Source of the DNA: an uncultured Ruminococcus sp.
GTDB taxonomy: Bacteria > Bacillota > Clostridia > Oscillospirales > Ruminococcaceae
NCBI GenBank assembly: GCA_934435205.1
Contig: CAKSAK010000001.1
Coordinates: forward strand, 542,243-606,242
DNA length: 64,000 nt
Reading direction: 5' to 3'
Shown here: one piece after another, positions 3,469 to 50,355 of the stretch
Layout: every line of letters begins with the position of its first letter
Position numbering within the stretch: the stretch's first letter is position 1
Notes under the pieces: generated by a model
Told to the model about the DNA's origin: nothing
What the model saw: only the letters and a program-made list of their open reading frames with translations
The model's database searches: none
Translations under genes and position numbers: made by a program

Positions 3469-3494
3469 TGTAGGGGCGAACAGCGTTCTCCCGT
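3469..3494. repeat. REP-like palindromic repeat copy (degenerate)
   Basis: TGTAGGGGCGAACAGCGTTCTCCCG. Confidence 0.6.
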
Positions 3495-7953: not shown

Positions 7954-8016
7954 CGGGCGAACACTGTTCGCCCCTACAATGCAATAATTACAATGTATGG
8001 CAAAAGCGTTCGCCCG
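7954..8016. repeat. REP-like palindromic repeat: one full copy plus a half copy
   Basis: CGGGCGAACACTGTTCGCCCCTACA at 7954-7978 and AGCGTTCGCCCGTA at 8003-8016. Confidence 0.7.
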
Positions 8017-19937: not shown

Positions 19938-20123
19938 GAATTAGGAATTAGGAATTAGGAATGAGGAATTGACACCGCCGTACATTGTGACGTACAAAAA
20001 GTTTGTTTAATGAGAAAGTTTGTGAGATAATCATGCGAACGCAGTTCGCAATGAAAGAAATCATCGCCGCAGGCGATACCTTCATTCCTCATTCCTAATT
20101 CCTCATTTGTCATTCCTCATTAG
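19938..20123. mobile_element. Non-coding MITE-like element A bounded by inverted tandem heptamer repeats
   Basis: Left arm (AGGAATT)3-AGGAATG-AGGAATT at 19943-19970. Right arm is the reverse complement (CATTCCT-type heptamers) at 20081-20123. Internal palindromes GCGAACGCAGTTCGC and ATCGCCGCAGGCGAT. No ORF. Confidence 0.5.
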
Positions 20124-24755: not shown

Positions 24756-24857
24756 ACGGGCGAACACTGTTCGCCCCTACAGAAGTGGGGCATAAAATTT
24801 GAGGAAAAAACAGCATACGCATATTTTTTGTAGGGGCGAACAGCGTTCGCCCGTTTA
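24756..24857. repeat. Inverted pair of REP-like palindromic repeats
   Basis: GGGCGAACACTGTTCGCCCCTACA and TGTAGGGGCGAACAGCGTTCGCCCG separated by about 47 bp. Confidence 0.75.
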
Positions 24858-26223: not shown

Positions 26224-26300
26224 TGTAGGGGCGACCTTGGGTCGCCCGATGACTACTAGGTTTGTCAGCAAACTGCGGGCGAACACTGTTCGCCCCTACC
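26224..26300. repeat. Inverted pair of REP-like repeats (one a sequence variant)
   Basis: TGTAGGGGCGACCTTGGGTCGCCCG and CGGGCGAACACTGTTCGCCCCTACC. Confidence 0.7.
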
Positions 26301-33481: not shown

Positions 33482-33507
33482 GCGGGCGAACGCTGTTCGC
33501 CCCTATA
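33482..33507. repeat. REP-like palindromic repeat copy
   Basis: GCGGGCGAACGCTGTTCGCCCCTATA. Confidence 0.7.
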
Positions 33508-36831: not shown

Positions 36832-36934
36832 AATTATTCCTCCATATTTCATTGCATTTTTAAACATACCTGATTAGTATAACACAGTATCGCTGAAATT
36901 GCAAGAGATTTTTTATGAAGAAAGCGGTGTTTGT

Positions 36935-37415
36935 GGAATGAGGAATGAGGAGTGAGGAATGAGGAATTATGGTATCGCCTGTCGGCGATGAATTTTTTGT
37001 AGAGGCGACCGCTGTTCGCCCTTTCAATCCTGCTATATCCGCACATTGTTGATGTTCCAACAAACCATGTAGGGGACGCTACTTTGCCGTGCCGCAAAAT
37101 CGCTTCGCTCTTTGCGGATTTTACGTTGTGCAGGAGGATAGTAAAGCGGTGCAGTTTTGTTCTTCGATACTTATTTGTTTGGTGACTTAATTTGTATTTC
37201 TTCTTTCCCTCTCTGCACCGCTTAGTCGGCTGTCGCCGAATGAGGCTCTGCCTCAAACTCCGCTAGGGACTCTGTCCCTAGACCCTGCAATGGGTTTCAC
37301 CCCTTGACCCTGACCAGGGGCGTGCCCCTGGACCTTTTGCTCGCTTCGCTCGGTGTTGGCTACCCCCACTCTGTGCGGCGCTGTCATTCCTCATTCCTCA
37401 TTCCTCATTCCTCAC
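36935..37415. mobile_element. Non-coding MITE-like element B bounded by inverted tandem heptamer repeats (related to element A)
   Basis: Left arm GGAATGA-type heptamers at 36935-36968. Right arm reverse complement (TCATTCC)4 at 37384-37415. Interior rich in short palindromes (ATCGCCTGTCGGCGAT, GGCGACCGCTGTTCGCC, CTAGGGACTCTGTCCCTAG, CAGGGGCGTGCCCCTGG). No credible ORF. Confidence 0.5.
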
Positions 37416-37427
37416 TTAACTTCGCCG

Positions 37428-37456
37428 TTGACATTCTCCCCGAACTATGCTAAAAT
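37428..37456 (+). promoter_or_regulatory. Sigma-A promoter for the nitroreductase gene
   Basis: TTGACA, 17-nt spacer, TAAAAT, immediately downstream of element B. Confidence 0.5.
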
Positions 37457-37502: not shown

Positions 37503-38030
37503 ATGAAAGATCTGCTCGAACTTATGAAAACCAGAAGAAGTGTACGAAAATACAAGTCTGACATGATACCGCAGGACGTTCTCGACCGCATCATAATAGC
37601 AGGAACTTATTCCGCCACAGGAAGAAACTTGCAGTCACCTATTATCATTGCTGTCACCAACAAGGAAATGCGTGACAAAATTTCTGAGATGAACAGAAAG
37701 ATAGGCGGCTGGGCTGAGGGCTTCGACCCGTTCTACGGTGCGCCCGTTATTCTTATCGTACTGGCAGACAAATCCTGTCCTACTTACATTTATGACGGAA
37801 GCCTTGTTATGGGCAATCTTATGCTTGCCGCTCACAACGAGGGCGTTGGAAGCTGCTGGATACATCGTGCAAAGGAAGAATTTGAGTCCGAAGAGGGCAA
37901 GGAGATCCTCCGCAGTCTTGGTATCGAAGGCGAATACGAGGGCATCGGTCACTGCGCACTCGGCTACACTGAGGGTGAATATCCCGAGGGTCACGAGAGA
38001 AAAGACACTTGGGTATACTATATCAAGTAA
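37503..38030 (+). CDS. Nitroreductase-family protein
   Basis: MKTRRSVRKY FMN-binding N-terminus typical of the family. AAGGAGG RBS. Confidence 0.8.
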   Translation: MKDLLELMKTRRSVRKYKSDMIPQDVLDRIIIAGTYSATGRNLQSPIIIAVTNKEMRDKISEMNRKIGGWAEGFDPFYGAPVILIVLADKSCPTYIYDGSLVMGNLMLAAHNEGVGSCWIHRAKEEFESEEGKEILRSLGIEGEYEGIGHCALGYTEGEYPEGHERKDTWVYYIK

Positions 38031-38050: not shown

Positions 38051-38077
38051 TGTAGGGGCGAACAGTGTTCGCCCGCT
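38051..38077. repeat. REP-like palindromic repeat copy
   Basis: TGTAGGGGCGAACAGTGTTCGCCCGCT. Confidence 0.7.
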
Positions 38078-45000: not shown

Positions 45001-45129
45001 TGTAGGGGAGCGGTGCAATTTCTGCTTTGCAGAAATACGACGTCCCGTTCGGAGAGTTTCAACGTTTAGCTTATCACAAATTTGCGTAGACGAACAAAGA
45101 CGGGCGAACACTGTTCGCCCCTATATTTA
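45001..45129. repeat. Composite repeat: second module (TGTAGGGGAGCGG...CAGAAATACGACGTCCCG) plus REP copy
   Basis: REP copy GACGGGCGAACACTGTTCGCCCCTATA at 45100-45126. Module 2 at 45001-45052 is shared with 50310-50355. Confidence 0.65.
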
Positions 45130-50255: not shown

Positions 50256-50355
50256 ACGGGCGAACACTGTTCGCCCCTACATATAAACAGCGTATTTACG
50301 CAGATTATAGAGGAGCGGCTCAATTCCTTTTTCACAGAAATGCGACGTCCCGCAT
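50256..50355. repeat. Composite repeat: REP copy plus second module (AGGAGCGG...CAGAAATGCGACGTCCCG)
   Basis: ACGGGCGAACACTGTTCGCCCCTACA at 50256-50281. Module 2 is similar to the one at 45001-45052. Confidence 0.65.

Follow-up and report, generated by a model that had tools for sequence, protein, structure and literature searches.

Element B, an intergenic segment of approximately 480 bp (positions 36935-37415) in a 64,000-nucleotide stretch of contig CAKSAK010000001.1 from an uncultured Ruminococcus sp. (assembly GCA_934435205.1; the whole stretch is referred to as the window), belongs to a multi-copy, dispersed palindromic repeat family of gut Oscillospiraceae and some of their phages. The element is a genuine, non-random and non-coding feature, for which the likeliest reading is selfish or structural DNA and not a gene. 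The view that we favour, and consider probable, is that B is an interspersed DNA repeat, non-coding and non-autonomous, of the same kind as MITEs (miniature transposable elements with inverted repeats) and REPINs (inverted doublets of repetitive extragenic palindromes, REPs), and that it represents a long mosaic copy of a family with heptamer arrays as arms. B shares its architecture with copies dispersed over many genomes, its arms co-vary with one another across lineages, it lacks coding capacity, its interior is a mosaic of other repeats, and it turns over quickly between strains through array slippage, gain and loss of modules, and deletion between 11-nt direct repeats.

The left arm of B (36932-36969, plus strand) consists of about five GGAATGA heptamers, one of which is GGAGTGA, the array itself being read as (GGAATGA)x~4.7 at 36935-36967/9. 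The right arm (37384-37416, plus strand) is its inverted counterpart, (TCATTCC)x4.4 at 37384-37414; Tandem Repeats Finder agrees with both assignments, and a repeat search paired 36932-36962 with 37384-37414 over 31 nt, at 94% complementarity and a spacing of 421 nt. These data confirm the inverted arrays that a sequence-only reading had placed at the two ends of the element. The 14-mer GGAATGAGGAATGA, a dimer of the heptamer, occurs 15 times in the window with up to two mismatches compared with an expectation of 0.70, a count reached by none of 100 shuffles (0/100), and its strong matches are confined to B and to a sister element, A (19938-20123). Folding of B was far more stable than that of shuffled sequences on both strands (z = -8.5 and -8.35). 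The sole sizeable open reading frame (ORF) across B encodes 135 amino acids on the minus strand (36849-37256), overlaps the start of prfC and has no match in Pfam. Neither the window nor 18 related loci matched an Rfam family at gathering score, and B gave only sub-threshold chance matches. The location of B between prfC and the nitroreductase promoter, also proposed previously, is correct: B is situated between the divergent genes prfC (minus strand, ATG at 36867; domains RF3_C and GTP_EFTU) and a nitroreductase (ATG at 37503; PF00881). A promoter-like site for prfC (36876-36904, minus strand) adjoins the left arm, and one for the nitroreductase (37428-37456, plus strand; TTGACA-17-TAAAAT, 11/12 matches) lies 12 nt beyond the right arm, both in the flanks outside B. 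On the GGAATGA strand of the arrays three successive units put TGA in all three frames (36935-36969 and 19938-19970), and several neighbouring genes in relatives terminate at an array TGA, at a distance of approximately 1-8 nt. The TCATTCC strand has stop codons in no frame, and gene callers therefore run ORFs into the arrays on that strand.

The family was surveyed by scanning GTDB species genomes with the pattern GAATNNNGGTATCGCCN{3,4}GGCGATGA, which spans the arm junction and the first hairpin (hairpin 1). The search for further copies that had been suggested for B was thus productive: 81 stretches were returned, of which ~76 look real and four are chance matches in coding sequence. The carriers are Ruminococcus spp., Hominimerdicola aceti, R. 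flavefaciens, Faecousia and other gut or rumen Oscillospiraceae or Clostridia, the densest genomes being one Ruminococcus metagenome-assembled genome (MAG) with 19 matches and H. aceti with 11. The heptamer array was also searched for independently in IMG/VR, which gave 115 stretches, including several complete inverted pairs with other hairpin sequences; two complete pairs are located in a phage structural module, one between the scaffold and portal genes and the other beside them. In the left half of the family plan the heptamer array and 3 nt precede GGT, hairpin 1 (ATCGCC and GGCGAT around a loop of 3-4 nt) and GA. This is followed by an A/T-rich core of 10-150 nt, hairpin 2 (exemplified by GTCCGC-GGA-GCGGAC or by GCGAAGC-type mini-hairpins), ACC, 3 nt and the inverted array. 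Among 83 genomic copies 26 are two-armed, with arms that align over 19-78 nt, and 57 are one-armed. Sizes in the family range from 110 to 480 bp, typical members being 110-200 bp; B is thus at the upper limit. B-like long copies also exist (L123, L152 and L147), and two members (L156 and L162) are near-perfect palindromes over the whole element. No description of a heptamer-armed repeat family was found in the literature.

Covariation between the arms is evident across lineages. The heptamer is lineage specific (GGAATGA, GGAATTC, GAAGAAT, GTGGAAT, GAGAATT or GCAGAAT), and the two arms match in every case. In an alignment of 10 minimal members 81.7% of the cells are paired compared with 73.1% in shuffles, with 0/500 shuffles reaching the observed value, and pairing falls to 38-53% with the partner displaced by 1-3 columns; both sides have changed in 12/20 pairs of the arm helix. 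The invariance of hairpin 1 is uninformative, as this hairpin was fixed by the search pattern. A covariance model built from the minimal members had only a weak reach into the IMG/VR copies and contributed little. The sequence-only reading had set its repeat element against a locus with neither further copies nor structural covariation; both were found.

Element A (19938-20123, minus strand) is a short member of the family whose minus-strand reading has the polarity of B, and it contains the hairpins ATCGCC..GGCGAT (20063-20077) and GCGAAC..GTTCGC (20035-20049). When the minus strand of A was aligned with the plus strand of B, as had been proposed, both subterminal ends matched: the left end is composed of the arm, GGTATCGCCTG(T)CGGCGATGA and a T-rich run, and the right end of TGT(R)CGGCG(S)TGTC and the arm. 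Between these ends B has ~300 additional nt. The earlier suggestion that B is a larger member of a family is upheld by the arms, hairpin 1 and right subterminal segment that it shares with A, by the ~76 further genomic copies and by those in IMG/VR. The flank of A displays 95.7% identity to H. aceti Sanger_31 (Oscillospiraceae). Locus A was scored in 21 strains with identical neighbouring proteins (L208-L217, L316-L325 and L129) and is dimorphic: 3/21 strains carry the window type, with hairpin 1 and the upstream gene in the same sense, and in 18/21 the core is inverted. The number of heptamers per arm, in TCATTCC and TCACTCC forms, ranges from 3 to 11, and the arrays lie immediately upstream of the -35 box of an ABC-permease promoter. 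The two cores are mutual reverse complements over the proximal 46 nt and unrelated over the distal ~35 nt, and overall identity between the alleles is 80% compared with 96-100% in the flanks. As each orientation has its own consistent sequence across strains, the alleles appear to be stable haplotypes or cassette replacements and not the states of a fast switch; judged from their sequences, they look like the outcome of inversion plus cassette replacement via the arms.

The additional length of B is fully accounted for by identifiable nested repeats. The left arm is followed by the family-defining junction TGGT and hairpin 1 (36970-36998, plus strand), where ATCGCC-TGTC-GGCGAT (36974-36989) precedes GA and a T-run. 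This hairpin is terminator-like (plus-strand site at 36973-36990), but no gene at this locus reads into 36973-36998; a second terminator-like hairpin is present at 37314-37331. Adjacent to hairpin 1 is a nested, GTAG-headed REP-like palindrome (GTAGAGGCGACCGCTGTTCGCCC; 36999-37021, plus strand), and then a mosaic filler (37022-37085, strand unassigned), composed of a AATCCTGC..ATCCGCACATTGTT module common to the B-like copies L123 and L152 and of GTAGGGGACGC, the remnant of a second GTAG REP type (37069-37079). The largest component is module X (~270 nt; 37086-37356, plus strand), a separate repeat that also occurs outside heptamer elements. It comprises, in order, a hairpin (CCGCAAA..TTTGCGG), a long-range stem (37144-37154 with 37213-37223) around a variable loop, a series of tandem palindromes (37226-37239, 37242-37254, 37263-37281, 37288-37306 and 37314-37331) with 8-bp stems and 3-nt centres, every one of which has ACCC or ACTCC after it, and a T-run. 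Two copies of an 11-nt direct repeat, TCGCTTCGCTC, are located at 37100-37110 and 37341-37351 (both plus strand). Between X and the right arm lies the right subterminal segment (..TGTGCGGCGCTGTC; 37357-37383, plus strand), which is homologous to that of A and is the most divergent part of B between strains (73% identity). All of the palindromes named in the sequence-only reading, both the types common to A and B and those extra to B, are present: ATCGCCTGTCGGCGAT (36974-36989), GGCGACCGCTGTTCGCC (37004-37020, with one C.T mismatch), CTAGGGACTCTGTCCCTAG (37263-37281) and CCAGGGGCGTGCCCCTGG (37314-37331).

The nested modules have distributions of their own. Copies of X were found in H. aceti (L147), again followed by a right heptamer array, in L140, where it lacks arrays and follows a terminator, and in fecal virome contigs (L221 and L222); its 5' motif was not found in IMG/VR. 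The tandem-palindrome design of X, with the linker ACCCTGCAA conserved, is also present in unrelated higher-GC gut contigs and recurs in phage contigs, for example flanking a portal gene on both sides (L232). Sites of this hairpin-array family include 37226-37340 in the window, L223 600-720, L224 175-270 and L225 575-670, as well as the IMG/VR contigs L226, L228, L230-L232, L234 and L235. They terminate in a T-run and ..CGGCTTGAGCGC or ..TTTCGCGCGATTGAGTTGG, and the array belongs to a hairpin-rich unit of ~450 nt, of which each phage contig has 2-3 copies. Neither B nor the phage locus L232, as representatives of this hairpin-array family, was matched in Rfam. The GTAG REP-like family, TGTAGGGGCGAAC-NNN-GTTCGCCC, is often arranged as intergenic inverted pairs and has ~11 copies in the 64 kb: in addition to 36999-37021 in B these are at 3470-3479, 7956-7977, 24759-24780, 24830-24851, 26225-26246, 26278-26299, 33485-33506, 38052-38073, 45103-45124 and 50259-50280. 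Orthologous loci in sister species (L137/L151 and L198/L200) differ by the gain or loss of REP clusters.

Thousands of human-gut assemblies contain the window's proteins without change. B itself varies between strains. It is present in all contigs of the species that extend to the locus, with many assemblies breaking within it, and its orientation is identical in all ~12 contigs that span the element; an inverted B was never observed. Compared with L284, which has a full element, the interior modules are 87-93% identical, with indels, whereas the flanking DNA of prfC and the nitroreductase gene is 97.2% and 95.6% identical, respectively. The interior of B thus diverges faster than the flanking genes, indicating that it is not strongly constrained. 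L236 lacks exactly 241 nt between the TCGCTTCGCTC repeats, with one copy kept, and its filler module (37022-37085) is also different, being replaced or missing. As both repeats are kept in all other copies of X, L236 is taken to have lost the segment by deletion between the direct repeats, and it is not read as an empty insertion site. The right arm differs between strains in unit number and in the variant TCACTCC. Its junction with the nitroreductase promoter (window 37411-37427) is duplicated in relatives, where 1-3 extra copies of CCTCACTTAA(A)C(N5-6), a longer period than that of the adjoining array, occur in L204 (1-70), L205 (1-50), L236 and L284. In L219 (880-1000; a Hadza contig with 2x coverage) a B-like far end is joined to a different gene via a different subterminal segment, reflecting either another B-like copy or a chimeric assembly via the shared X module.

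Whether the family behaves as DNA or as RNA was addressed through its genomic context. Complete elements have no orientation preference with respect to the flanking genes ((+,+) 6, (-,-) 9, divergent (-,+) 4 and convergent (+,-) 1), the arm mismatches of the 26 complete copies, 32 G:T versus 24 A:C, favour wobble on neither strand, and one copy (L025) scored almost equally against the covariance model on its two strands (31.2 and 30.3 bits). The lack of an orientation preference, the absence of a wobble excess and the two-strand symmetry point to a DNA-level palindrome, or one indifferent to strand, in preference to an RNA specific to one strand. DNA-level repeat behaviour is also favoured by the rapid change of B's interior with its gain and loss of modules, by the range of 3 to 11 units in the arrays and by the two orientation alleles of A. 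The solo half-elements have a different profile: the upstream gene is co-directional in 36/53 cases, often ending within 1-50 nt, and a T-run follows hairpin 1 in 44/57 one-armed copies versus 12/26 complete ones. In the clade of the window, the one-armed copies may thus be half-elements that have been kept, or recruited, to serve as intrinsic terminators. Two further roles were considered and discarded. A role of the heptamers as a universal stop signal, or as RNA sites of the Shine-Dalgarno, CsrA or HutP type, is at odds with the lack of conservation of the heptamer sequence across lineages. An outward promoter as part of the element was suggested by the TTGACA box that adjoins both window copies, but such a box adjoins only ~5/26 complete copies.

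In the model that we propose the family unit is a quasi-symmetric palindrome, in which a 20-40-bp heptamer arm, GGT and a 6-bp hairpin are separated by an A/T-rich core from hairpin 2, ACC and the inverted arm. B would be an old, long copy located in dead space between two divergent promoters, where insertions would be harmless, and its core appears to have been filled, in the manner of bacterial interspersed mosaic elements (BIMEs), by small palindromic repeats, namely the GTAG-type REP, the REP remnant and module X. The arms may function as terminal inverted repeats or form a fold-back stem for a putative mobilising or recombining activity, and could supply homology for inversion or cassette replacement, as at locus A. 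B itself would probably have no dedicated cellular function. Several observations weigh against this proposal. No empty site for A or B was detected, all of the sampled strains being filled, in exact-protein look-ups (nitroreductase, prfC, permease and ABC ATPase), three nitroreductase homologues and a prfC-based metagenome scan of 80 loci. Relatives of prfC at 82% identity or less have different synteny and so are unusable as empty sites, and gain or loss was seen only for nested REP clusters and the X core. Nitroreductase homologues that seemed to be N-terminally extended, taken as a sign of a different upstream region, proved to be C-terminal frameshift variants. Target-site duplications were not apparent in 8-10 aligned copies of one lineage with the termini AATKAGG...CCTMATT (the comparison included L124, L125, L164, L168, L170, L187 and L193), although the repetitive ends leave the exact boundary uncertain. 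No inverted arm pair encloses 0.9-7 kb in ~600 kb of related loci, and Pfam identified no transposase or recombinase among ten window proteins scanned (the ORF overlapping B and nine proteins of 220-352 amino acids). Mobility is therefore deduced from dispersal and from the conservation of the ends within genomes. In addition, the bias of the solo copies and their T-runs suggest that part of the family acts at the RNA level, the hairpins of module X and its relatives display some compensatory changes (CTAGGGAC..GTCCCTAG, CAAGGGGC..GCCCCTTG and GCAGGGAC..GTCCCTGC), and orthologous positions upstream of glmM and of tsaD are kept across species. These conserved positions fit old, largely vertical inheritance, although they could also reflect function.

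Among the alternatives, an RNA-level cis element is possible but unlikely. Here the perfect arm stem of ~35 bp in the transcript would be an RNase III substrate, a protector of mRNA 3' ends or a bidirectional terminator or insulator, or X would be a small structured RNA. The very stable folds on both strands (z about -8.4), the terminator-like hairpins at 36973-36990 and 37314-37331, the solo half-elements 1-50 nt past the stop codons of co-directional genes with T-runs, the compensatory changes in X and its relatives, and the complete elements inside phage late operons (scaffold-portal), where they are necessarily transcribed, are consistent with this explanation. B, however, is upstream of both flanking promoters, such that no known transcript enters it, and no convincing promoter was found within it. 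Perfect palindromes with 3-nt centres are equally typical of DNA palindromes, only 1/20 complete elements lies between convergent genes, and the interior, from which the loss of 241 nt is tolerated, is less conserved than the adjoining coding DNA. Thus, the structured non-coding RNA offered in the sequence-only reading is not borne out as a strand-specific RNA, given the absence of an Rfam match, of an orientation bias and of an excess of G:T over A:C mismatches, and the fast divergence of the interior; incidental RNA effects of the long stem or of the terminator-like hairpin 1 are possible. An unlikely interpretation is that heptamer-armed elements constitute a class of recombination or mobility module, whose lineage-specific, expandable and self-complementary arms would let cores invert, pass between loci or be captured. 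Such activity would have left its traces in the A alleles and in those parts of B's interior that differ by strain, and the putative enzyme would leave no target duplication, for example a hairpin-recognising HUH/Y1-type or another enzyme acting on single-stranded DNA.

Less credible is the view that B is an inverton, in which a recombinase flips the segment between the arrays and so reorients hairpin 1 and its T-run, or an internal promoter, with respect to prfC and the nitroreductase gene. Such a switch is suggested by the long inverted repeats around a 420-bp segment beside two promoters, and by the two orientations of A with identical flanks, only one of which puts hairpin 1 in sense with the upstream gene. 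By contrast, all ~12 B contigs have one orientation, the A alleles are not exact reverse complements but have a sequence particular to each orientation, none of the nine window proteins tested besides the B-overlapping ORF is a recombinase, and a family with dozens of copies per genome, many of them one-armed, is unfit for a dedicated switch. It is highly improbable that B is a decayed autonomous mobile element with an eroded transposase gene. Although B exceeds typical members in length and is not alone in this respect, the extra length consists of nested repeats, the only long ORF (135 amino acids) overlaps the start of prfC and has no Pfam match, and no arm pairs surround 0.9-7 kb in related loci; the remnant of an autonomous element entertained in the sequence-only reading is thus not supported. 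Local expansion of simple sequence, with palindromes arising by chance, has virtually no credibility as the origin of B. While the arrays do expand and contract by slippage, they are inverted partners, the hairpin 1 motif is present at at least 76 loci in many genomes, and the heptamer count is far above chance; the heptamer excess, the family copies and the arm covariation refute this explanation.

The proposed non-autonomous repeat was compared with known systems. MITEs with long terminal inverted repeats include the Correia/NEMIS elements of Neisseria, pneumococcal RUP and enterobacterial ERIC. In common with these, the heptamer-armed family is small (~100-500 bp), lacks ORFs and has many intergenic copies with terminal inverted repeats; members of both groups fold into a long hairpin, as a transcript or a single strand, adjoin promoters or terminators, and occur in phage genomes. 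The family differs in that its arms are 7-nt tandem arrays that vary in unit number by strain and in sequence by lineage, in its conserved ends and very variable core, and in the absence of a detected target-site duplication, parent insertion sequence or empty site. REP, REPIN and BIME systems are palindromes of proteobacteria mobilised by REP-associated tyrosine transposases (RAYTs). Like REPINs, the family forms inverted palindromic doublets that give one long hairpin, with 26 doublets versus 57 one-armed copies. The mosaic clusters of different palindromes in BIMEs resemble the interior of B, and REP singlets just after genes are like the solo half-elements. The GTAG head of REPs is, however, missing from the heptamer-armed unit; only the separate REP family (GTAGGGGCGAAC..), with its copy nested in B at 36999-37021, has it. 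No RAYT was present among the ten window proteins, which were scanned against Pfam for other reasons, no search aimed at RAYTs being made, and no report of a REPIN or RAYT was found for the Clostridia host lineage. As neither a target duplication, a parent insertion sequence nor an empty site was found, and the GTAG head is missing, B is not placed in a named family.

Invertons are invertible promoter or terminator switches, such as the cwpV switch of Clostridioides difficile. The features in common are inverted repeats that flank a few hundred intergenic bp, an orientation-dependent terminator-like hairpin and, at locus A, two orientations; the differences are the dozens of heptamer-armed copies per genome, the A alleles that differ in sequence, B that was never inverted, and the lack of a recombinase among the ten window proteins scanned. 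Intergenic heptamer arrays, such as cyanobacterial short tandemly repeated repetitive (STRR) sequences and TAACTGA repeats, likewise comprise 2 to tens of tandem 7-nt units, with many arrays per genome, an unexplained origin and a patchy phylogenetic distribution. TAACTGA repeats are described in Beggiatoaceae, Cyanobacteria and Bacteroidetes, mostly just upstream of start codons, and are direct with one indirect case among 169 (PMC4679880). The direct arrays contrast with the inverted array pairs around a hairpin-bearing core in the heptamer-armed family.

Heptamer-armed elements fragment metagenome assemblies of an abundant human-gut species, as contigs end inside A and B. They also give rise to hypervariable 7-nt arrays directly upstream of promoters and mark places of apparent inversion or cassette exchange, and are therefore relevant to assembly, to strain typing and to the way in which intergenic variation is interpreted. 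Should an enzyme exist that mobilises or recombines them, the family would add a repeat system to the Clostridia, where no REPIN- or MITE-type description of such repeats was found, and if the elements are recombination or mobility modules, terminators and promoter-upstream regions would be rewired both in gut Oscillospiraceae and in the phages of these hosts. Leads on the exchange of non-coding DNA between phage and host are the possible co-option of half-elements as terminators and the occurrence of both repeat families in phage structural operons.

Two further observations concern solo half-elements. In a Ruminococcus MAG (L135, 5135-5330) a unit of ~34 nt, GCTTTGACCTCTCGGTCGCTTTGAACTCTCGTTT, is repeated in tandem ~4 times directly after a solo half-element. 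A 2.4-kb difference between sister genomes (L188 2526-5005 versus L139 5878-6141) was considered as possible element cargo but is a 712-amino-acid elongation factor G (EF-G) paralogue between two direct solo modules: in L188 the paralogue and its neighbour are each followed by a direct-oriented solo half-element, and in L139 one complete two-armed element occupies this position.

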